Part shown: positions 1 to 63,858 of the stretch, piece by piece
Layout: each line of letters opens with the position of its first letter
Position numbering within the stretch: the first letter of the stretch is position 1
NCBI GenBank assembly: GCA_951406725.2
Contig: OX597822.1
Location: 103,106,001-103,170,000, forward strand
Length of the DNA: 64,000 nucleotides
Direction of reading: 5' to 3'
Origin: Octopus vulgaris
Lineage: Eukaryota
Program-made: the position numbers and the translations under genes
The notes under the pieces: model-generated
Database searches by the model: none
What the model saw: the letters and a program-made list of their open reading frames with translations, nothing else
What the model was told of the DNA's origin: nothing

Positions 1-181
1 CACTGTGTGGCCAAAGACGAGGAGCTGGCTTCTGGTTGTGTATTTATATTCTTCGTATAGAGGATTTCTCCTCTCTAATCAGCTTTGGTTGATGAATGCT
101 TTTAGAAAGACCAAGAGGTTGGCTTATTCTGTCATCCTGTACTCTCCTTGTTGCTATCGAAATGGTATATGCTGGCTGTGT

Positions 182-813
182 GAGCAAGTAGTTGTTTTAA
201 TGGTGGAACAAACAGGGGAATTCCATTGGAAAAAGTTTTAATCGGTTTTTGCAGTAACTATGGGGGCTATGAAAAAAATCCAAAGCGCATTCCAATCTAT
301 GTACCTGTCTCCACATTTCACGCGAATCCACCCAGCCATTTGGCTGTGAACCTCAAGACAAGAAAGAATGCAACGATCACCCATGTCCAATTTATATTAT
401 ATACTAGCAGCTAAGCCCAGTTTCACCCGGTCTGTTTGGATAATGTGGGTGTGTTCATTTTCAGTTAGGTATAATCTATAACAACATTTTTCAACCTTAT
501 CATTTCGGGTCCCCTGTTTCGATTGGAGCCTCCAGCTGTATGAAAATTTCCTGACCCCACCCTGTCAGAAAACAGCTTCTAAGCAACTGGTTGTTTTAAT
601 GGCGGAAGAAAGAGGGAAATTCCATTACAAAAAAATTTCATCGATTTTCTTGGTAATTATGGGGGTTAGGGAAAAACTACAAACCGCATTCCAATCTATG
701 CACCCGTCCCCACATGTGTGCCATTTTTCACGCAAATCCACCCAGCCGTTTGACTGTGAACCTCAAGACAAGAAAGAATATAACGATCGCCCATGTCTAA
801 TTTATATTATAGA
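182..813 (-). mobile_element. Two tandem non-autonomous Helitron copies (complete unit 404-813, partial unit ~182-402)
   Basis: Minus-strand 5'-TC at 813-812 and 3'-CTAG at 404-407 next to a short hairpin, inserted at A|T. ~182-400 is a diverged direct repeat of ~581-810. Confidence 0.6.
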
Positions 814-1460
814 TGACTCTGTATTGCTACAGTTTATGTCTTGCTCAGAGATTTAATATAGATTATTTCTCCTTTCTTGAGATGAGCGACAGTTTGTCAC
901 TGGAAAAAGCATATAGTATTTTGCGAGTGGAATGAGTTATCATCAGTAGCTGGTGATTAACACACGCTAAGGACAAGTAACCACCAAGAAACTCAAGTCT
1001 GTGTGTATCATGTAAGGGTAGAGATGGAATCAATGACCATCCCTTGCAAATACTTATCGGACACAGAATGTGTGTTGTTAGCCAGCTGGAAGAGATGTCT
1101 TTCTGGGGCTACAAACGTCAGTAACACTGTCCTGTATAGGACGCCACACTTGGCTGGCAATTATATGTATATGTATATGTATTGCTACTGTTTATATCTC
1201 ACACAGAGATTTAATATAGTATATATATATATATATTTTTCTTTTATTTCTTTTACTTGTTTCAGTCATTTGACTGCGGCCATACTGGAGCACCACCTTA
1301 AGTTGAACAAATCGACCCCAGGTCTTATTCTTTGTAAGCCTAGTACTTATTCTATTGGTCTCTTTTGCCGAATTGCTAAATTATGGGAATGTAAACATGT
1401 CAACATCAGTTGTCAAGTGATGGTGGGAGGAACAAACACAAATACATACATATATATATA

Positions 1461-2537
1461 TTGGGTCATCACATAAATATTGCAGTTTTTTTATAGTTTT
1501 ATTTTTTAATATTAAGATAAACAAAGTTCTTGTTTAATCTAAAATATACTCTTCCTCATTTTCTACAATGTGCTTCCATCTATCAGTAGAGATGCAAAGT
1601 TCCTCTTCCAAAATTCAGTTGTCCATGATGAAAAATACTCCTCTAGTACTGTTCTGACCTCATCTACAGAATTCCTATTTTTTCTGTCCAAATGATTTTG
1701 AAGACTGCAGAATAAATGATAATCAGATGGGGCAATGTCCAGTGAATATTGTGGGTGGGACAATATTTTCCATTCAAACTGCTCCAGCCTTTGGAATGTC
1801 ATCCTCGCTGTATGTGGCTGAGCATTATCCTGATGGAAGAACACCTTTCATCTTGAAACCAAAGATGGTCGTTTTTCTTCTGGCGCTGACTTAAGCCACT
1901 CAAGCTGCTTGCAGTAGATCTCCTTTGTTATCATTTGGTTTGGGTTTAAAAGTTCGAAGTGGACTAAACCTTTCATATCCCACCAAACAGATAACAACAC
2001 CTTACTTGGGTGAAGACCCTTAGCCTGGGGTGCTGGTGTTTCTCCTTTCCTTAACCACTATCTTCAGGGCTTGACATCTTTATAGAGAATTCATTTCTCG
2101 CCACCAGTGGGATTATGTTCCACCAGGGTTTGCAGGACATCCTTGTCAAGCACTACAGATCTTCTAGGACAAGGTTTGTCTTCAAGGCTGTAGTTTCTAG
2201 CTCAGAATTTCTGGAACCACTGTTGACACTGGCTTATGCTTATTGTTCGATCCCCATAGACTGCATTAACATTCCTCACATTTTGTGTTGTGTTGTTACC
2301 TTTATTGAGCTCATAAAGTAAAATACGCTGAATATGCTCCTCTGTCACTTCTATAGTAGCTTTGAAAAAATACCTGTTAAAATCGAACTGCACTCTTCAA
2401 AACTAGCAGTAAGAATAAGTACAAAGTAAAAGTACTACCTGCTTTTATAGCAAATCAATGCAGGTAGTTTATCATGTCCATCTCCGACTTTTAGTTCATG
2501 CAATTTAAAAAATGGCATTATTTATGGGATAACCCAA
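1461..2537 (-). mobile_element. Degenerate mariner (Tc1/mariner) transposon
   Basis: TIRs ttgggtcatcacataaat / atttatgggataacccaa flanked by TA. Transposase fragments HQDNAQPH...DIAPSDYHLF (1563-1844) and an N-terminal HTH-like piece (2202-2393). Inserted in the TA linker of a SINE. Confidence 0.9.
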
Positions 2538-2925
2538 TATATATAAAATGGACGTCTTTCAGTTTCCATTTACCAAATCCACTAACAAAGCTTTGGTCAG
2601 CTCAAGACTATAGTAGAAAACACTTGCCCTAGGTGTCACACAGTAGGACTGAACCCGGAACCATGTGGTTGGGAAGCAAACTTCTTACTACACAACCACT
2701 CCTGTGCCTTTAGTCAAAGTAGTATTAAAATTTTTTCAAGTTTTACTCACATGTTATCTGTTTATGTCTCATTCTGAAGTAAACCACACTCAACTGAAAT
2801 ATAATCATAGATCACCTTGAGTAACACCGCACAATATGGTAATTTACTTTGCTAGAAGTGATGTGCCAATTTATCCAATTGTCTAATCACCTAAATTACT
2901 TATTCATTTAATCAACGTATAAGTT

Positions 2926-4207
2926 ACCAATAAGGTCTAGAATTAAAGGGCCTTTGAGTTAATCTAGCAAAAACCAAATTTTTAGTATGTAGGAAAGCAA
3001 ACAAATCACAAATCCCTTCAGGTAGATGGCCCTGCTTGATCTGTAGAAAAGGTGTAGGTAGAAATATCTTAAGATGTACCTGGTACAAGCTATGGACACA
3101 TAAAAGGTGCAGCAATATCAGAGGAAGGCTAACGGGGAAAATAGTTTTTGTGTATAGATGGTGCACAGGTGCAATAGACACTAAAAATATACAGAAAATA
3201 GACTCCATCCAATGCCAATGGGTAAAGCAAGAAGTAGTTACCTAGGTGACCAAGTCAGTTGTGGAGGTGGATGCTCTGAGAGTGTAGCTGCTAGAATAAG
3301 AATAGATTGGATGAAGTTCAGAGAGCTCCTGCCTGTGTTGGTAACAGTCAGGCAGCACTGGCATCAGCCACGTTCGGATGATGCTTTTTATGTGCCACTG
3401 GCATGGGTATCATAACTACAATTTTTATTTGATTTTTATTTTGATGTTGATGTTGATGTACTTGACTCAATAGGTCTCCTCAAGCACAGCGGGTCACCCT
3501 ACGATCCAAGGTAACAAAGGGCCTCAACCTCAGTGAAATGCAGACTGTATGATGACTGTGTGCAAACAGCCATTCTACATGGCAGTGAAACATGGGCTGT
3601 GACTGCTAAGGACATGCATAAGCTTGAAAGAAATGAAGCTGGTATGCTTCACTGGATGTGCAATGTCAGTGGGCATGTACAACAGTTTGAGCATCTTGAG
3701 AGAAAAGCTGGGCATAAGAGGCATCAGATGTGGTGTGCAAGAGAGATAACTGCACTAGTATGGGCATGTGATATGTAAGGATGAGAACAGCTGTGTAAGA
3801 AAGTGACGATCTCTTTGGAGGGAACCTGTGGGAGAAGTAGACCCAGGAAAACATGGGATGGAGTAGTGAAGCATGATCTTTGAATGTTGGGCCTTATGAA
3901 AGCAATGACAAGTGGCAGAGACCTTTGATGATATGCCATGCTTGAGAAGACCTGTCAAGCCAGGTGAAACTGTAGTTGTGGCTGATGCTGGTGTCACATA
4001 ACTGGCACTCATGCCAGTGGCACACAAAAATCACCCATTACACTCTTAGAGTAGTTGACATTAGGAAAGGTGTCCAACTGTAGAAACCAAGCCAAATCGG
4101 ATTGGAACCTGGTGCAGCTCTTTAGCTTACCAGTTTCAGCCAAACCATCTAATCCATGCCAGCATGAAAGCAGACGCTAAATGATGATAATGATGATGAT
4201 GATGATG
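2926..4207 (+). mobile_element. 5'-truncated, decayed RTE LINE (same family as 10354-14545)
   Basis: Frameshifted RT remnants (CRKGVGRN...WTHKRCS, HGSETWAVT), the shared 3' tail, and a (GAT)n end. Confidence 0.85.
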
Positions 4208-5972
4208 TTGTATTCCTTAATATAATCCTCAGGTAGAATTAGTGAGATACAGTGAAATAAAAGTATTTGTCATTTTAGCTTATCTTAGAACACAAAGTAA
4301 ATTTTTTGCTCAGACCGGCTGGTGTCAGAAAGGTTAAAATGATCTAAACGTAAAGCTTACTATTTCTGAACTCAACAAATGAAACTAACAAATTAAATGA
4401 TTTTCATAACACTTCCATGCCAGTGGCACGTAAAAGGGCACCATTCGAGCGTGATCGTTACCAATGTCGCCTTACTGGCACCTGTGCTGGTGGCATGTGT
4501 AAAAGGATTCGAGCGAGGTCATTGCCAGTACCGCCTGACTGCCCCCCCCCCCATGCCGGTGGCACGTAAAAAGCACCCACTACACTCTCGGAGTGGTTGG
4601 CGTTAGGAAAGGCATCCAGCTGTAGAAACTCTGCCAGATCAAGATTGGAGCCTGGTGCAACCATCTGGGTTGCCAGCCCTCAGTCAAAATCGTCCAACCC
4701 ATGCTAGCATGGAAAGTGGACGTTAAACGATGATGATGATGACTAATTGAAAATTAGGAAACCAAGTATTACTATAGAATTACACTGTGTAACGCTATTT
4801 TTGTCCTCACGTAGCAACTGTTATTTCCTATTTGCTTACCTGTAGAAAGGATGAAAAATGGCTAATATTCCCTTCAAACTTTTCTTTTGTCACACTTATT
4901 CAAACTACAAAGAATCCCTCTCAACACATGGCTATGATGCTCCCTCACAACTCCTGCTCATGATCAGAGATGCACATATTGTCCGCCACTAAGGACATGC
5001 TCAAGTGGCAAAGGTCAAGCAACTGACAAGCAAATCTGTGATACTGAGCAGAACATTTGCTATAATGATATTTCTGCTTCAGCATCTCAGTAAAATGTAT
5101 CTGAAATGTAATGGAAAATAGGTCAATTTCAAAATAGGTCACTTTCAAAACATTGATGTCCAACTCATAAAAGCAAAGTTTGAAGGGAATGGTAGTCATT
5201 TTCTTTGATTTCTAGATAGAAGTAAATAAGAAACACCACTTTCTGACCAAAGACAAAACATGTTATTAACTAATTAACTTCAAGACTGTTCTTAGCAATT
5301 TTAATGAGACTTAAAAATTTTGAAATCTTAATCAAATTTGAATGATTGTATTTTTTTTAATTACTGTTTTATTTCTATTTCAGAATATTTTGGCCAAACA
5401 AAGTTTTAAATATTCAAACCAAGGAAGATTTATTTTGAACTGAAATGGTTTTTAATATAACAACCAATAATAAATAAAACCACAGCAATACCAAGATTGA
5501 AAAAAAATACAAGACTAAGTTATTTTGGTAAACAGAATTTTCACTGAGATAAGAAATTTTGAGAAAAACATTGAAGCAATGACTTTTATTGGGATATTTT
5601 CAAGGTGTTTACAAGAATGGTTGCAGTTATGGTATCACTCATTCAGCAGGATTTATTTTCCATCTTCAAACAATAAATATGAAAGATTTCTAACAATACT
5701 GTTTGACAGAACTTATGAGATATAATAGAACTTTCATATGTTCTTCTTTGGAGACCGGTCGTCTACAACCAACAAGGCATCACTTGAACTGAAATGCTTT
5801 ACATTCCTAACAATCATCAGTGCTTCAAGCTTAGTGTAATTTAATACAATTTACAAAATGTAATTTTGTATGAAGTTCACAAATGAAAATATACATCCTC
5901 GGTGATTAACAGTATATGTTACCATCATTATAATTAGCATCTTGATATTCATCTTAATCCCCAATCAATACC

Positions 5973-6195
5973 TATTTCTTTATTACCCACAAGGGGCTAA
6001 ACATAGAGGGGACAAACAAGGACAGACAAATGGATTAAGTCGATTACATCGACCCCAGTGTGTAACTGGTACTTAATTTATCGACCCCAAAAAGATGAAA
6101 GGCAAAGTCGACCTCGGCAGAATTTGAACTCACAACGTAACAGCAGCCGAAATACCACTAAGCATTTCACCCAACGTGCTAACGATTCTGCCAGC
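5973..6195 (-). mobile_element. tRNA-derived SINE (family B) with a 15-bp target-site duplication
   Basis: TSD tccccaatcaatacc at 5958-5972 and 6196-6210. Core gcctttcatc..ggggtcgataaattaagtacc. Other copies at ~17725-17935, 21009-21242, 29312-29542, 38750-38972, 40372-40790 (tandem), 44295-44483, 47294-47508 and 48885-49083. Confidence 0.9.
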
Positions 6196-6221
6196 TCCCC
6201 AATCAATACCATCAATAAAAA

Positions 6222-6635
6222 ATGGTTATTCAAAACAGTACCTCAAGTATGTTGGCTTTGTTGTGCAGAGGTTTTCCTAATCAGACTTTCCGAACAGTAC
6301 AGTTTCCTCCAGAAAATTTCAGTAGGAAATATCCGACTGTGCACAGGACAGGCCCAGCATCTGATAGCGGGGCATTAATATATATAGTAGCAGTCCTGGT
6401 GTTCTATTCTGCTGCTATAATTATCATGATTATCAAATACCTCAAATCCGAACGGAAAGATCAACTTGAAGATGCTTTGATTGAGAACTTTTTCCGAGAT
6501 ATGCCAAATGGTAAAGCAGAGAGAGAGAACCGTGTGAACCAGGTAGCAATCCATGCTTTCCATACCTTGACAACAGCTGTTTATAATGATGAATCTTTAC
6601 CTTCTACAAATGAGGTACTTATAACAGATGTGTAG
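6222..6635 (+). CDS. Single-exon type III single-pass membrane protein, KCNE/MinK-like candidate (137 aa)
   Basis: ATG-to-TAG ORF in non-repetitive DNA. No signal peptide. N-glycosylation sequons at N5 (NST), N20 (NQT) and N32 (NFS). One TM segment ALIYIVAVLVFYSAAIIIMII followed by KYLKSERKD. C-terminal ITDV. AATAAA at 6686-6691. Confidence 0.8.
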   Translation: MVIQNSTSSMLALLCRGFPNQTFRTVQFPPENFSRKYPTVHRTGPASDSGALIYIVAVLVFYSAAIIIMIIKYLKSERKDQLEDALIENFFRDMPNGKAERENRVNQVAIHAFHTLTTAVYNDESLPSTNEVLITDV

Positions 6636-6994
6636 AGTTGTACATATCTTTCTGTTTTTTTTTTTGGTTTTTCGGTTTTTCTGATAATAAATATTTCTGA
6701 ATAGATTTTGACTCTTTTTTTTTTATTTCAGTTAAAAAATTTTCTCAAAATTCAAATAAATGCAATTCAGAATGGGCCACTTAAAGGTTCACTAAATATA
6801 ATATGCATAGTCACAGGTGTGACTGTGTGGTAAAAAGCTTGGTTCTTAACCACATGGTCCTGGGTTCAGTCTCACTTCATGGCACCTACTATAGTCTCAG
6901 GGTGGTCAGAGCCCTGTGAGTGGATTTGGTAGATGGAAATTAAAAGAAGCTTGTTTTATATATATATACATACATATATATATATACATACATA

Positions 6995-9990
6995 TATAAT
7001 ATAATTCGAGACAAAACCACTATTTTAAAATCAAACAAGGAAAGACTTAATCAATACATAAAATTTTAATATAAATTAAATAAACCGCCACTACAATTGT
7101 TTCCTGTCTTCTACTGACATTCTTCAGATGGATTTTCGATCTAAAAATATCAATATTTTAAAATATAATTTAAAATAATAAAATTATCAATGAAAGAATA
7201 TAAAAATAAAAATATATAATCTCTATATAATCTATATATAATCTATATATAATCAATATATAATCTAAAATAATCTAAAATAAACCCTATAAACAATTGA
7301 ATATAAAAAACCTATTATTAAAGTTTTCATATTTAAAAATGTACAAAAACCAAAAAACAACAAGCAAAAAACAAAAAACAAAAAACAAAAAACAAAAAAT
7401 AAACTATATATACACACACATGCTCATACACTCAACACATTACTTATTCATACTTCCTCACACACACATACAACACTCATTCATAAACAATATACATATA
7501 CCCGCTCACACATACATATACATACACATACATACAGAACACGATATATACCAATATATAAACACCCACACCCATATAGATAAATAAATTACGCAAACAA
7601 TCACACACACCCACACACACATTCACACATACATAAACGCTCAAAAGAAAACCGAACAATTCTTTGCATGTGGATATCAAACGTTTTAAAAAAAATTATG
7701 AATGGAAATGAAATCCATACATACAAGTATAAATATAACGATACAACCCCTAACACAATACACACAAATACACACACATATATACACACACCCACAAACA
7801 TAACCATATACACACTCACACATACATATACATACGTACAAAACTCGATACAAACAATCTTTAATAAAACGACCATGATAAACGAAAACTCATATTAAAT
7901 GAGTGTGTACACGCAGACGGGTGCAATCACACGCACATTCAAAACTTACATGTATACAAGTGCATAAATAATCACACCCAATTACATAGCACTCATACAC
8001 TCCCAAATCTACACTTACACTTGTACACACGCACACATACATACACACCCATACCTACATACAAAAATTCTTATTAAAATAATCATGATAAATAAAATCC
8101 ATACATACAAGTATAAATATAAAGATACAACCCCTTACACAATACACACAAATACACATACATATATACACACACCCACAAACATAACCATATACACACT
8201 CACACATACATATACATACGTACAAAACTCGATACAAACAAATACGCACACGCACACACATTCACACATACATAAACATACAAAAGAAAAACAACATTTC
8301 TACACATAATACGATATATAAAATACTCCATAAAAATATGAATTGGATAATAAAACTGAACCTTATGTACCTTTGAACCCCAGAATTACTCTTAAAGACC
8401 ATAAAGATAATTTTTATTCAGACCCTAAAGTTAGATTAATTTGCCCATGTAAATCTGACTTAGGTAAATTAAGTAAATTTATTTTAGATAAATATATCAA
8501 TAAATTAAATAAACTTAATTATTTAAAATTATGGTTTAGTAATAACAATACATTGAAATGGTTTAATAATATTAAATATTAATAATATTAATATTAAATC
8601 GAAATCGAATTGAACCAGCCAGGATCCCTGGTCTGATGGTACGTAAAAAGCACTATCCGACTCGTGGCCGTGGCACGTAAAATACTCCAATGCGACCGTA
8701 CGACAGGCACCCTTGCCAACCCCCTTTGCTTGTGAAGACATGTTGGGGCAAGCGAAATCGAAATCGAATTGAACCAGCCAGGATCCCTGGTCTGGTGGTA
8801 CGTAAAAAGCACTATCCGACTCGTGGCCGATGCCAGCACCGCCTCGACTGGCTTCCGTGCCGGTGGCACATAAAATACACCAATCTGACCGTGGCCGTTG
8901 CCAGCCCCACCTGGCACCTGTGCAGGTGGCACGTAAAAGCACCCACTACACTCACGGAGTGGTTGGCGTTAGGAAGGGCATCCAGCTGTAGAAACATTGC
9001 CAAATTTAGACTGGAGCCTGGTGCAGCCTTCTGGCTTCCCAGATCCCCGGTCGAACCGTCCAACCCATGCTAGCATGGAGAACGGACGTTAAACGACGAT
9101 GATGATGATGATGAAAGATAAAAATCGTTATAAATTTATTCAAATAGATATAGATAATTATTATTCTTCTATTAATGAAATTGTGTTTAATAAAGCACTT
9201 ATTTTCGCAATGAATGAAGTGGGAATGTCACGGGAAGAAGTTAATGTAATTAAAATGGCTAGGAAATCGCTAATTAAATATAAAGATAAATTATGGGCTA
9301 GGAATGATACTAGAGATTGTTTTGATATACCTATGGGAGCACCAGATTCTGCACAGGCTACTGATTTAGTAGGTATTTTTCTTTTATCTGAACTCCAATT
9401 AGAAAATCTTAAGATAGAGGGTGGTTTATATAGAGATGATCTTCTACTAATTACAAAGAATTGTACTAAAAGGAATCTAGAAGTATATAAGAAAAACACG
9501 CAGACGGGTGCAATCACACGCACATTCAAAACTTGCATGTATACAAGTGCATAAATAATCACACTCAATTACATAGCACTCATACACTCCCGCATCTATA
9601 CTTACACTTGTACACATACATACACACCCATACCTACATACAAAATTCTTATTAAACTAATCATGATAAATGAAATCCATACATACAAATATAAAGATAA
9701 AGATAAAACCCCTTTCATACACAATACACACAAATACACACACATATATACACACACCCACAAACATAACCATATACACACTCACACATACATATACATA
9801 CGTACAAAACTCGATATATACACTAATATTCATTCCCACACTCAATAAAATATTAAGTAAATACAAAACAAAGAAATACCAATTAAATACTAACTATAAT
9901 TAAAGCCTAAACTATATAACTAAAAATATATATATATGGTACTCTAAACTAAAAACAAATTAATCTAAAGTAACCTTTAATAGGGGGCTA
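6995..9990 (+). mobile_element. Rearranged Penelope-like retroelement (RT fragments 8343-8582 and 9114-9495)
   Basis: RT motifs RITLKDHKDNF..RLICP, IDIDNYYSSI, FDIPMGAPDS and GLYRDD. The RT is interrupted by an RTE-tail insertion (8594-9113). CA/TA-rich blocks are duplicated (7908-8240 and 9495-9815). Confidence 0.75.
7088..7131 (-). ncRNA. Minimal type I hammerhead ribozyme motif (Penelope pLTR-type)
   Basis: Minus strand reads ccat-CTGAAGA-atgtc-agtagaa-gacag-GAAAC-aatt-GTA-gtgg. The catalytic core is intact and stem III is short and palindromic. There is an A.G mismatch at the base of stem II. Confidence 0.65.
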
Positions 9991-10353: not shown

Positions 10354-15011
<4,658 letters not shown>

Positions 15012-31380: not shown

Positions 31381-31895
31381 ACTCTGTAAACATTCGGGTT
31401 ACGTTTCCAGTTCTAAAACAACTCCCTTCCTTCGTCCTAATTTAGGAGACCCTATAAAAAAAAGTCTTGGACTTTACCCTTCCTTCTCTATGTCATATAA
31501 AAACAACAAAAGCGACAATACAAACAAAGGTATCCTTCTATTAAGACTGCGATGTTTGATTTGAAGGAGATTTGGCTGTACTGTTTAGCAAATTGAACAA
31601 CCGCACAGAATACTCCTTTCCTCATTGCTTATAACATTGATTTGTTCGTGCAATGTTTCGGTTATATAACGAAAGTGGTTAATGACCGTAATTAAATAAT
31701 TGCTAGTGTGTCTGAACAACAAATATATTTCGATATACACAACTCGCGCCACCAAAAGTTTTTCGCATTTTGATAAAACTTCAGAACAAAAGAAATGTAG
31801 GCAATGTTTTCGAATATTTTGCAGGGCAGAAACGGTTTAGGAATCTAACATCTATCGAATTGTTTTAATTTGCATTATTATTAGCTTAAACTTAC

Positions 31896-32588
31896 CTGGA
31901 AAGTCTGTACTAGTTCATCATCAAGCTGAACGTCCCCATCTGGAGCAATATCAATGGACTCAGCATGCCAGTCAGGGTTCAAGTTGGTTAAAAGTACCTG
32001 CATTTCGGTCCGGGGCATCTTCATGTGGCAAGACAAACACTCGACACGATGGGAACAACCGTGCAGTTCTGTCAATCGTTTAGTACCAGCTTTTGAATGC
32101 AAAGCATCGACATTTTGTGTGATCAACCAGTGTAACTGGCCAGATTTTTCCCAGGACGATAGAACATAATGAACAGTATTTGGCTGGAATGAAGAAAACT
32201 GCGGCCAGGCAACGAAGTTCCTTGCCCAATACCTCTGTCGCCGGTCGCTATTTCTAAGGAACTCTTGGTATCGTATAGGCGTATGGTTGCTTCGTGCGTA
32301 CATCCCGACTTCCTCCGATCGGTAATCAGGAATTCCACTTTCGGTGGAGACACCTGCTCCCGTCAAAACTGTGATCGTTTTGTTGTTCTGCAGAAAATTC
32401 CTGATTATGTCGAGGTGGTGGTTTTCCACGGCCTTGCTTTTTGGAACGAACATACTCCGGTAACGTTTGAACACGAATAGATCATTGTTTCTCAATACAG
32501 AGAGTAAATTCGCACAGAAAGTATCCTTGATTGCTCTGGTGATCATTTTGGTGCGATAAACACGGCCCGATCGTCCGTTACATAACAT
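31896..32588 (-). CDS. SIRT4: SIRT4 (mitochondrial NAD-dependent sirtuin) coding exon 1
   Basis: Arg-rich N-terminus, then TGAGVSTESGIPDYRS, RQRYWARNFVAW, ITQNVDALH, ELHG, CLSC and APDGDV. Donor CAG|GTAAG after 31896. 693 nt, phase 0. Confidence 0.95.
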
Positions 32589-34189: not shown

Positions 34190-34819
34190 GTGTGATCTCC
34201 GTTCGTCAAGCTGTTATTTCCACAGTTCACATCGTTTACCAAACTGAACCCATGGATCAAGTGTAGACCGAGGTTGGGCGTGTGACATGCAGAGTGCCAT
34301 CAGGCACTCGTGCTTCTCTCCCTGTTGGGCAACGCCGGTGGCGGGGGTACTACCTCGTTCTTCTATAGAGGGTTAGTAGAGTTTAAGTGTGACGACGTCC
34401 TGGGAGAAACCCTAGACTTCGACGAAGATCAACTGGCCTGCCAGTTCCAAAGAACATTCGGGCCGGGGCCTATGGATATTTACCAAAAGTTCCTGGCCTG
34501 GCAATGTTACAGAGGAGCTTTACCGGTTCGAGATAAACTCTTTAGACATGGGTGTGCGCCTTCGCCGGTTTGTGCAAGATGCGAGCGGGACAGTGAAACT
34601 GTCCTGCACGCGATTGTGCAATGCCCCAAGGTGACTGATCTTATGTCGACCGCTTCCTCCGCTTCATTTTTTGTAATTCACTCATTCTCATTTAATTGTA
34701 TATATTTTAATTGTTTGTTTATTCATACGTTTCGTCTCGTTCGATACCCTAACCCCAATGCTTGTTTTGTCTGTCCTCGTATCGCCCCCTCTTTTTCTCA
34801 ACTTTATGGTTAATAAAAA

Positions 34820-37128: not shown

Positions 37129-38055
37129 ATGATGGAATACGAAAACCTCACCTCCTCGGAGCTTACGTCTTCTGAGGAGGAACTATTGAAGTCTGTCGAA
37201 ATGGATGAGCAGTTGAAGAAAAGAAATTTTACGACTGTCGTCAAGAGCCACAGCAACGAAGTCGAACTAAGAGAACTGAGTAAATATAAGAACATGCTTT
37301 GTAGGGACGGGTGCGAAGTAAAGGTGTTCCCTTCATAAGAAACTATGAAAGATCCCAAGGAGAAAACTATAATATATAGAACGTACTCCACGAAAATAAA
37401 GAAAATCGAAATAACGACGACCACACAAGTAGAAAAAATCTTGAAACCAATCTGGTAAGGAATTTCATACCTTGTCAGTGGAAGGAAGTTCGGAACAGTG
37501 GCGGTGCGTTTTCAAGAGGTAGCTACTGCTAGGTTACACTCGGCAACCCCGTTAAAAACAGAAGTGGTACTTCTACCCATATACCTTGGGAGACGTGCTT
37601 CAAGCATTTGGGTAGAAGATATACCACCAGAGATTGACGTAGCCTGGCTAGTAGCTGCCATACTGCTGGGCAATGAAGATAACAAAGTGGTCCTCCAGGC
37701 CACAAGAACAGCTCATAAGAATTGGCAAGAACTGGCCCTGGATATGATTATCCAGGGGTCCCCGGAGGACATCGAAAATATAGTAGAAACTATCGCTATA
37801 GAAGACGTGATAATCATGATCAGAATGGAGGTTAGGACCCCGCGTTGCTACAAGTGTGGCCTAAAAGGCCACATTAAAGCAGACTGTCCTCTGCCACCCA
37901 AAAAGCCCCAAGAAGGACCCGTGAGCAGGGAGGAAGCCGAATCTCCAGCGCCAACAAGAGAAAACGCAAGTGCTAAGGAAGAAGAAGCAAATAAAGAAGG
38001 CAATGAGTGGGGAGCGGTCGGAAAGAGAAAAAGAGAAAAGAGGGGGGGAAAATAA
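37129..38055 (+). pseudogene. Gag/ORF1-like retroelement protein with a CCHC zinc knuckle (in-frame stops)
   Basis: CYKCGLKGHIKADC knuckle and a basic W..VGKRKR tail typical of L1/Tx1 ORF1. The 5' portion is broken by stops. No adjacent RT seen. Confidence 0.65.
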
Positions 38056-62649: not shown

Positions 62650-63858
62650 CTAGCACTATGACCCGGCAACGCTGGGTCATAGTGCTAGTGCATGCATATA
62701 CAGCTGCGTGCGTGCGCACATACACGCGAGTACTGTCCAAATCTCTGATGACCAATCACATACAGCTAGCTGGCATTCAATTGGCGTATCAAGTTTCGTG
62801 CATTTTGATTGGGTTTTTGGATAGAAAATTCACAAAAAAGTCACTTCTATTGATTTTTTAATGGCTTTGCGGGGTGACTGGGGAAATGTAAAGATGTGCA
62901 CGACCACCCTTGGATTGTTTTGAATGACCATAGAAAGTGCGAGCCCTCTAACTGAAAAATTGTGGATTTGTATAAAGGACACGCTCACAGACATTTTGCC
63001 GTTTATATATATACTAGCAGAATTGCCTGGCGTTGCTCGGGGCTGAATTGCTTGAAAGTACTGTTAATGATTGCACTGAATTATGATGATTATTCAGGCA
63101 AATATTGATATAAGCTTACGGTGGGAGATAAGGACTTAACGATCAAACGTGTGCCATTGCATTGTTTTGGGGGAACCAAATTTCTGATGAGCATTATAGG
63201 GGCACCAACTTTAAGTTTGAGAAAGTGTGGTGGTAGTCCGGGGTGCTCAAAGGAATTGAGTACCTCTATTGGATAGTTGATGACGTCCTCTGGGTCAGGA
63301 GTTGTATCGATAGACTGATATACATAGACTTCCCCAGGAATGAGTTTTAGCATTTCATCATTAATATGGTGAACAGTTTTATTCCTCGGGGCCAGTATAG
63401 CCTTTTTGCCAATCCAATCCATATTCTGATAATTAGCTTGTAGATCTGGGAACACTGCATCTCTGAGATCAGAAGGCGTCTTAACAATGGTACAAATGGA
63501 ATCGATGGCAATATTACCATTTTCATCCCCTGGTATTTTGCCTTCGCCAAGTGCAAGGAGGGTGTGAGGAAATGCTGCTGATGTGATATTACGTCGCATA
63601 TGAGCACGCATATTGGTGTGAAGTTTGAGAGTTACTTCCGTTTATTTAAAAAAATATGCATTAAAATGGGAAAAAATGATGGTAAATTATTTGTAAAATC
63701 ATAGACTCATCGTAGACGCGTGCTAATACCCAGAAGGGCTCGATATGAATCACGACTATAAGATACCCGGTTTTGGTTAAACTGCATCGCAAAATGTGGG
63801 AGTAGTTAGGAATCTAAATCGGAGTAGACAGACACACAACCTTTCTTTTATATATAAA
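62650..63858 (-). mobile_element. Two head-to-tail Helitrons; the second (63014-63858) retains a Pif1-like helicase fragment
   Basis: CTAG ends with hairpins at 62650 and 63014. ORF 63090-63611 contains AILAPRN..HINDEML..GLPPHFLKLKVGAPIMLIRNL..CNGTRL (RepHel helicase). Confidence 0.9.

Follow-up and report, generated by a model that had tools for sequence, protein, structure and literature searches.

A protostome family of one-helix membrane proteins with probable distant kinship to vertebrate KCNE potassium-channel subunits, and its members in Octopus vulgaris

The closest known system of P0001, the Octopus vulgaris protein described here, is that of vertebrate KCNE1-KCNE6 together with lamprey KCNE0 (PF02060; PDB 9u7f, 9vec, 2k21, 2m0q, 6v01, 2ndj). 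KCNE proteins are defined, in the available part of PMC13054283, by a length of 103-177 aa, a glycosylated N-terminus, one helix and a cytoplasmic C-terminus. According to the available parts of PMC13516689 (eLife 2026) and PMC11659587 (2024), no invertebrate gene has been identified as a canonical KCNE, bar those of the KCNE-like MPS proteins of C. elegans, and the origin of KCNE is placed in early vertebrates; both papers base the invertebrate absence on Okamura 2005. In the available part of bioRxiv 2025.09.21.677649 the question of invertebrate KCNE is not addressed. Our literature searches, mostly of journals open without subscription, found no description of the P0001 family. A few invertebrate proteins may already be labelled KCNE in automatically annotated databases, since one family member, from Lottia, exceeds the Pfam cut-off.

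P0001 is encoded in a 64,000-nt stretch of the O. vulgaris genome (G000:C9:103106001-103170000), the whole of which is referred to as the window. The features of the gene, in window coordinates, are:

5356..5383, (+): splice acceptor of the coding exon, a pyrimidine tract plus AG, placed by contig edges and sequence context
5384..6221, (+): 5' leader part of the terminal exon, 838 nt, with 14 upstream ATGs (ORFs of 1-48 codons), covered, except for breaks at the repeat, by contigs of three runs that are probably RNA
5959..6210, (.): SINE-like high-copy repeat (about 5973-6196) in the leader, with a 14-bp direct repeat at 5959 and 6197, 11 bases upstream of the ATG
6222..6635, (+): coding sequence of P0001, 137 aa, ATG to TAG, with no interruption
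6234..6323, (+): extracellular part, with sequons N5, N20 and N32 and a short helix at residues 7-16 that includes C15; side of the membrane predicted
6372..6437, (+): single transmembrane helix, residues 51-72, with conserved face A51, Y54, I55, V58, L59, Y62, S63, G65 (A in P0001), I66, M69
6438..6494, (+): juxtamembrane segment Y73-x-K75-x-E77-x-x-D80 ... D84 ... F90-F91, in register with KCNE1 Y65, R67, E72, D76 and, after one gap, Y81-I82
6534..6572, (+): second conserved cytoplasmic helix, residues 105-117 (A109 in 63/94 rows; F or L at 113 in 79/94), with no counterpart shown in vertebrate KCNE
6621..6632, (+): putative C-terminal class I PDZ-binding-like tail ITDV, from sequence
6686..6705, (+): AATAAA at 6686 and probable 3' end; the match of one X1 contig ends at 6705, with 24 letters beyond

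The 137-aa open reading frame, three sequons, single transmembrane helix and ITDV end described in an earlier, sequence-only reading of this DNA were all confirmed from the sequence, and the coding region that it called compact is indeed uninterrupted and lies within one terminal exon behind a splice acceptor. The start codon has A at -3 and G at +4. The best 19-residue hydropathy window (2.87) lies at residues 53-71 and the best N-terminal window reaches 0.76; judged by hydropathy only, a signal-peptide-like stretch is absent from the N-terminus. An AlphaFold2 model from 58 sequences contains a helix at residues 7-16, a long helix at 46-93 and a further helix at 97-125, with pLDDT of 95-98 over 51-90 and about 75-81 over 97-125 (mean pLDDT 74.5; pTM 0.38). 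The tail ITDV resembles a class I PDZ-binding motif. The cluster mates of P0001 are uncharacterised proteins named from Octopus vulgaris and O. bimaculoides, and its closest relatives are 96% and 83% identical, the 83% one coming from Argonauta. The same cluster holds a 69-aa O. vulgaris model, P0095.

Sequencing contigs from four of 24 listed runs (X1, X3, X10 and X16) were compared with positions 1-6960 of the window. No run is recorded as RNA; the tool guesses RNA for 14. Contigs of X1, X3 and X10, which come from three studies and are RNA by that guess, begin to match at 5382 and have 99, 70 and 155 additional letters past that end; run X16 crosses the acceptor site and is continuous over 5204-5990. 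The match edge at the AG acceptor in X1, X3 and X10 implies that the coding region lies in one terminal exon from 5384; no match to the upstream exon was found within 1-6960, and the joined splice form was not seen. A poly(A) site near 6705 is suggested by a single contig. The SINE-like repeat in the leader, at about 5973-6196, has very high summed depth in all four runs, and the 14-bp direct repeat that flanks it occurs at exactly two places in the window. The long leader, with its 14 upstream ATGs and SINE-like insertion, may limit translation. Differences between contigs and genome are rarer in the coding part than in the leader, both in X10 (3/555 vs 17/597, p 0.003) and in X3 (2/459 vs 12/596, p 0.03). 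All three of the differences displayed for the coding part in the contig table are synonymous (64 table rows are outside this count). Selection acts on the coding part of the P0001 gene.

Other features of the window include an exon of a Sir2-family gene at 31881-32588 (-) (PF02146, E 4e-36), presumably SIRT4-like, and a LINE in three ORFs at 10942-14097 (-), with an endonuclease, a linker and a reverse transcriptase with a PHD-like finger. Mobile-element fragments lie at 63090-63611 (-), 34472-34813 (+) and 37744-38055 (+), with a Pif1 helicase 2B domain, zf-RVT and a zinc knuckle. A 151-aa ORF at 9099-9554 (+), which has no Pfam match and carries a YRDD motif, is possibly a reverse-transcriptase fragment.

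A phmmer search of P0001 against 1.84 billion representative proteins returned 92 relatives at E<=1e-3, the threshold at which relatives were taken, and 34 at 1e-10; word-index homologue searches were insensitive, with 2 and 12 matches. Among 27 relatives looked up, eight belong to clusters with an organism name and 19 do not. The named relatives come from the molluscs Lottia and Mya, the annelids Ridgeia and Owenia, the barnacle Amphibalanus, the centipede Strigamia, the spider Uloborus and the nematomorph Gordionus; all eight are annotated as hypothetical or uncharacterised, and no deuterostome, insect, nematode or cnidarian is among them. The earlier reading spoke of molluscs; the family is wider, extending to annelids, arthropods and a nematomorph. 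On present sequences, the family is a protostome-wide, unnamed group of one-helix membrane proteins. Its members vary in length from 72 to 743 aa. A sequon precedes the transmembrane helix in 81 of the 83 relatives with an N-terminus of at least 30 aa, and a cysteine lies within 50 aa in 68 of these 83; a class I PDZ-type ending, [S/T]-x-[V/I/L], is present in 59 of 91. An unrooted tree of 97 cores (80 columns, no vertebrate rows) resolves several subfamilies and places P0001 among mollusc sequences, and has no bearing on orthology with KCNE. Several relatives (P0023-P0030, P0034, P0072 and P0085) combine the same core with cytoplasmic tails of 300-650 aa, compared with a total length of 103-177 aa in vertebrate KCNE. 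The two Mya arenaria proteins P0008 and P0238 are near-identical copies with consecutive locus numbers, suggesting tandem duplication. P0083, a clear family member from a metagenome source, is named as the archaellum protein FlaJ and is likely mis-annotated animal DNA.

Octopus has a second member of the family, P0108, a protein of 300 aa with 24% identity to P0001 (L002:928-1830 (-), G000:C13 near 52363000). Its membership is indicated by an hhalign probability of 95.7 and by a score of 25.7 bits against a profile built without its own group, for which shuffled sequences reached at most 10.3; it shares a subfamily with P0079 and P0082. Genome searches with P0067 and P0064 as queries returned nothing beyond the P0001 locus, the gene on C13 and two weak rows (E 0.69 and 0.91). 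The exact P0108 sequence is absent from the protein collection searched, and a SINE-like element similar to that in the P0001 leader lies upstream of the C13 gene. The P0108 coding region is uninterrupted, with a strong acceptor-like sequence about 78 bases upstream of the ATG. Vertebrate KCNE genes have their coding region in a single exon that follows a 5' intron. The P0001 gene likewise has one coding exon behind a 5' intron, and the C13 paralogue has the same layout by sequence alone.

P0001 as a single query does not retrieve KCNE: it has no PF02060 (ISK_Channel) match at E<=10 (none of the four families listed), and KCNE is in none of three rows of a search against 177,635 PDB sequences. 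Some of its relatives do. PF02060 is matched at E<0.05 by 34 of 93 relatives (best E 2.6e-5), and three of these exceed the family cut-off of 22.1 bits by margins of 0.6-2.3 bits, namely P0007 (24.1), the Lottia protein P0020 (22.7) and P0064 (24.4); no cut-off of any other Pfam family is exceeded by any of the 93. CrgA, an unrelated bacterial transmembrane family, is matched by 17 of the 93 (best E 5e-4), which indicates the background level for such helices. Neither SRTM1 (PF15872) nor DUF5527 / C10orf105-like (PF17665) is matched by P0001 or the 93 relatives at E<0.05, and no syndecan, glycophorin or similar family emerged from the Pfam scan of the relatives. The family membership of P0064 is firm (it scores 48.5 bits with a profile from which it was left out, where shuffles reach at most 23.0), and its best match in the 2.8-Gb genome is the P0001 locus (E 1.1e-5). 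A scan of the Octopus genome with PF02060 gave 13 matches, the P0001 locus not among them; the eight of these that were inspected are simple repeats or frames with stops and were rejected as family members.

In the PDB search, a profile of the 58 shorter sequences (A1) ranked KCNE3 first to third (E 0.43-0.53), as did a profile of all 97 (A4; E 0.084-0.34, KCNE in 5 of 9 rows). Four single relatives, chosen by their Pfam scores, were also used as queries: P0007 returned KCNE1 in both of its rows, P0064 KCNE1/2 in 4/4, at a best E of 0.024, and P0020 KCNE1 in 3/3, and KCNE was in neither of the two rows of the centipede protein P0076. KCNE was therefore ranked first in five of seven family-query searches and absent in two, with a best E of 0.024 and none below 0.02; the relatives used in the KCNE searches form one family and are not independent trials. 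The alignments extend past the helix. Those of profile A4 and P0020 include the N-terminal sequon and helix, with P0020 aligned to KCNE1 residues 5-26, and that of P0064 includes cytoplasmic F78-Y81-I82-D85 of KCNE1 (F-x-x-Y-I-x-x-D), with one gap after P77. Feature comparison in the ESM Atlas placed three chordate clusters first for P0001, all at 0.94 (209-213 of 256 features), with ISK_Channel in 13%, 37% and 100% of their members. The first of the three bears the name SMIM34A (ISK 13%), and the KCNE1 cluster is the one with 100% ISK. SERTM1 (0.90), C10orf105-like (0.84) and reprimo (0.80) scored lower, and a score of 0.9 is attained by 4 to 10 of 100 shuffled proteins. For residues 1-105 of P0108 an ISK cluster was first at 0.88, which is graded as a lead only. 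Fold searches are uninformative for a long helix: Foldseek gave no match to the P0001 model at E<=0.001, and the best VIA-align match (Z 6.2, rmsd 1.0, 51 aligned) was among generic long helices only, with KCNE not listed. Collagen IV and RCAN, neighbours of vertebrate KCNE loci, were the two synteny markers used: collagen IV genes lie on C19 and C10 and RCAN on C2, and neither is on C9, which carries P0001, or on C13. Kinship with KCNE is supported by several tests that are weak and concordant, and common ancestry of the protostome family with vertebrate KCNE appears likely from these comparisons. P0001 is probably a distant KCNE branch, and we have not filed it as a PF02060 member because it misses the Pfam cut-off.

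The tool alignments of the relatives to PDB KCNE1 agree with the offset of 8 between P0001 and KCNE1 proposed from the sequence alone. The gapless alignment claimed at the same time stands up to position 84; beyond it, one gap is needed to keep register. The pairs Y54/Y46, V58/V50, L59/L51, F61/F53, Y73/Y65, S76/S68 and D84/D76 are all in register, giving 7 identities in 34 positions by hand count. By itself this pairwise likeness is not beyond chance, given that count and the failure of P0001 alone to retrieve KCNE from Pfam or the PDB. The 92 relatives and the lower variation of the coding part do go beyond chance. A reported 10 identities in 27 positions with KCNE4 is arithmetically correct by hand count for the KCNE4 string quoted in that reading. 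Conservation among the relatives was counted over 94 alignment rows (of 95, one was dropped for gaps; P0001 and P0003 were excluded). The conservation expected of Y73, S76 and D84 was found for Y73 (86/94) and not for S76; position 84 is mostly E. Conserved positions include Y54 (90 rows), V58 (84), L59 (89), F61 (84) and Y62 (91). Position 76 is S in 6 rows, R in 42 and T in 26, and S76 was rejected as a homology marker. At position 84, D occurs in 13 rows and E in 66 (D or E in 79). On these counts, S76 is probably incidental and D84 would mark an acidic position. Position 80 (KCNE1 E72) is D or E in 89/94, position 75 (KCNE1 R67) K or R in 85/94 and position 90 (KCNE1 Y81) F or Y in 90/94; D48 (KCNE3 D54) is kept in 56/94. 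D76N and Y81C in KCNE1 appear in the available part of PMC13054283.

Many of the conserved positions correspond to residues that touch KCNQ1 in solved complexes. In the available part of PMC12589563, KCNE1 contacts are E43, Y46, V47, F54, T58, L59, M62, L63, S64 and Y65, and R67 binds PIP2; the positions of Y46, F54, Y65 and R67 are Y (90/94), Y (91/94), Y (86/94) and K or R (85/94) in the family. For KCNE3, residues T71, V72, G73, L75 and Y79 are KCNQ1 contacts (PMC10950684, available part), and S57, I61, M65, A69, G73 and I76 face S1 of KCNQ1 (PMC9671499, available part). The family has A (87/94), I (89/94), L (89/94), S (87/94) and I (62/94) at S57, I61, M65, A69 and I76, and at G73 has V or I, the glycine not being kept. 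Among the KCNE3 substitutions tested, S57A (0.66) and M65L (0.63) were best tolerated, small residues alone worked at A69, and at the G73 site V gave 0.22 and L 0.35 (PMC9671499). At the S1-facing sites the family is thus identical to KCNE3 at I61 and I76, has the best-tolerated change at S57 (A) and M65 (L), and has a small S at A69. Across residues 51-75, the 15 contact positions have an entropy of 1.23 vs 1.96 for the other 10 (p 0.012, best of 11 registers); registers -4 and +4 are nearly as good (p 0.014 and 0.045), as expected of a helix. When the six S1-facing sites are taken alone, p is 0.10, and it falls to 0.004 if the register is shifted by +3. This test was post hoc, with a register based partly on the same residues. 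With p 0.012 in such a post hoc test, the conserved helix face of the family appears to be the KCNQ1-touching face of the solved complexes.

The Octopus genome also encodes a KCNQ1 orthologue, with exons on C2 at 126.63-126.78 Mb (G000:C2, (-); L012, L015, L017, L018, L019 and L027). The C2 exons match KCNQ1 far better than KCNQ2-5 (E 7e-20 vs 4e-11; 8e-200 vs 3e-135), and the exon for S5 aligns over its whole length with residues 261-307 of human KCNQ1. Of the 29 contact and PIP2 residues listed, 28 are found in the O. vulgaris KCNQ1 protein P0234 at a constant offset of 95, the exception being M at V324. P0234 retains F127, G272 and V334, and has R at K326 and I at T327, two KCNQ1 residues linked to KCNE4 action. 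Ciona, in the available part of PMC3206303, has no KCNE gene and a poorly modulated KCNQ1; the same work reports that F127, G272, V324 and V334 matter for KCNE action, with Ciona-type changes tested at F127, G272 and V334. Nematode KCNQ1-like proteins (P0162) also keep most KCNQ1 contact residues, and S1 similarity is not predictive of functional outcome (PMC13516689, available part). The retained contact residues are permissive of a KCNE-type partnership and not proof of it. Three further observations concern the channel genes: an exon of another type of KCNQ (KCNQ2-5-type) lies on C4 (L011); L013 (G000:C21:3732299-3732466, (-)) is a KCNQ1 exon copy with the same 32-residue peptide as L012, reflecting a duplicate gene, a fragment or an assembly duplication; and P0113, the O. 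bimaculoides KCNQ1 model, is without 11 S6 residues present in O. vulgaris, O. sinensis, Argonauta and the genomic exon, probably a model error.

We consider it reasonably likely that the Octopus gene combines KCNE ancestry with function as a Kv (KCNQ1) beta subunit. P0001 would be inserted N-out without a signal peptide and glycosylated at its N-terminus, and its helix would pack into the cleft that S1/S4 of a KCNQ1 subunit forms with S5/S6 of the neighbouring subunits, with A51, Y54, I55, L59, Y62, S63, I66, I70 and Y73 as candidate KCNQ1-contacting residues and K75 as a putative PIP2 contact. Such packing would shift KCNQ1 gating or current size. Because of the bulky I67 (KCNE1 L59, KCNE3 G73), voltage-dependent KCNE1/KCNE6-like or inhibitory modulation would be expected rather than a constitutively open channel, and the PDZ-type tail may tether the complex to a scaffold. 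In the KCNE-type interpretation originally offered, the kinship is borne out by concordant weak searches, no single strong E-value to vertebrate KCNE accompanies it, and channel modulation is a prediction.

A protein of the same ancestry could have another job. P0001 would then belong to a wider N-out one-helix group (KCNE, SMIM34, SERTM1, C10orf105-like) whose conserved face meets another membrane partner, be it a channel, transporter or receptor, with a PDZ anchor. The SMIM34A name of the top Atlas cluster, of which 13% is ISK, and the scores of SERTM1, C10orf105-like and reprimo fit this, as do tail lengths ranging from short to over 600 aa and the second cytoplasmic helix and PDZ-type tail, which are family traits with no KCNE counterpart shown. 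However, SRTM1 and DUF5527 match none of the 93 relatives at E<0.05, where ISK matches 34, the KCNE1 cluster with 100% ISK scores an equal 0.94, and the conserved positions coincide with the KCNQ1-facing side; we regard this alternative as rather unlikely. Convergence, in which an unrelated protostome type III membrane protein with a glycosylated N-terminus, a Tyr-capped helix, a basic-then-acidic juxtamembrane segment and a PDZ tail resembles KCNE through topology and composition, is less probable still. That three members exceed the curated PF02060 cut-off, that different subfamilies retrieve KCNE1, KCNE2 or KCNE3 before all other PDB membrane proteins, that the likeness lies on both sides of the helix, that ISK clusters come up for both of the divergent Octopus paralogues, and that no syndecan, glycophorin or similar family appeared in the Pfam scan all speak against it, although all direct scores to vertebrate KCNE are weak and set against a CrgA background, shuffled proteins reach 0.9 in the Atlas in 4 to 10 of 100, neither C9 nor C13 carries collagen IV or RCAN genes, and none of the eight named relatives is a deuterostome.

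A gene that does not work, either as a chance or decayed ORF beside a repeat or through a block on translation by the 14 upstream ATGs, would suit a SINE-like repeat that ends 11 bases before the ATG and a leader so rich in start codons. It is nevertheless extremely improbable in view of the 92 relatives, the 83% identity in Argonauta, the splice edge seen in three studies, and a coding part that is less variable than the leader and whose displayed changes are synonymous. An origin of the ORF by chance or from the repeat is rejected by the family and by selection.

If the family is KCNE, KCNE dates from the ancestor of protostomes and deuterostomes, there is an outgroup for lamprey KCNE0, and the core of the KCNE-KCNQ1 interface is outlined by the residues that have not changed. 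There would also be a candidate explanation where cloned invertebrate Kv channels differ from native currents, and both candidate partners, P0001 and P0234, are encoded in one genome. We lean slightly towards a broader scenario built on these sequences, in which a KCNE gene and a KCNQ1 receptive to KCNE were already present in the bilaterian ancestor, protostomes retained KCNE and expanded it into several PDZ-tailed subfamilies (two genes in Octopus), the gene was lost or missed in Ciona, and such beta subunits shape native K+ currents in the neurons, hearts and epithelia of molluscs, annelids and arthropods.

Among known single-pass proteins, C. elegans MPS-1 to MPS-4 are sometimes called KCNE-like (PMC13516689, available part); they are described as nematode-specific, and the named relatives of P0001 include no nematode protein. 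The SMIM34A-named and SERTM1 (PF15872) Atlas clusters resemble P0001 in comprising small one-helix proteins, with feature scores of 0.94 and 0.90, and unlike the P0001 family they are mostly chordate; Pfam SRTM1 matches 0/93 relatives. From KCNE itself the Octopus protein differs in an identity of about 20% over the core, a score below the Pfam cut-off and the triplet A-I-I (G-I-V in its family), where KCNE proteins have FTL, TVG or LAL/MAL. S68 is not kept in the family, one extra residue follows D76, and most members also have an N-terminal helix with a Cys, a further conserved helix in the cytoplasmic part and a PDZ-type tail. With KCNE, P0001 shares a length within 103-177 aa and one helix, with N-terminal glycosylation sites and a cytoplasmic C-terminus predicted from sequence. 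Its likeness to KCNE3 lies in the register of D54, Y60, I61 and Y79, and that to KCNE1 in the N-terminal sequon and helix and in the register of Y46, V50, L51, F54, Y65, R67, E72, D76 and Y81.
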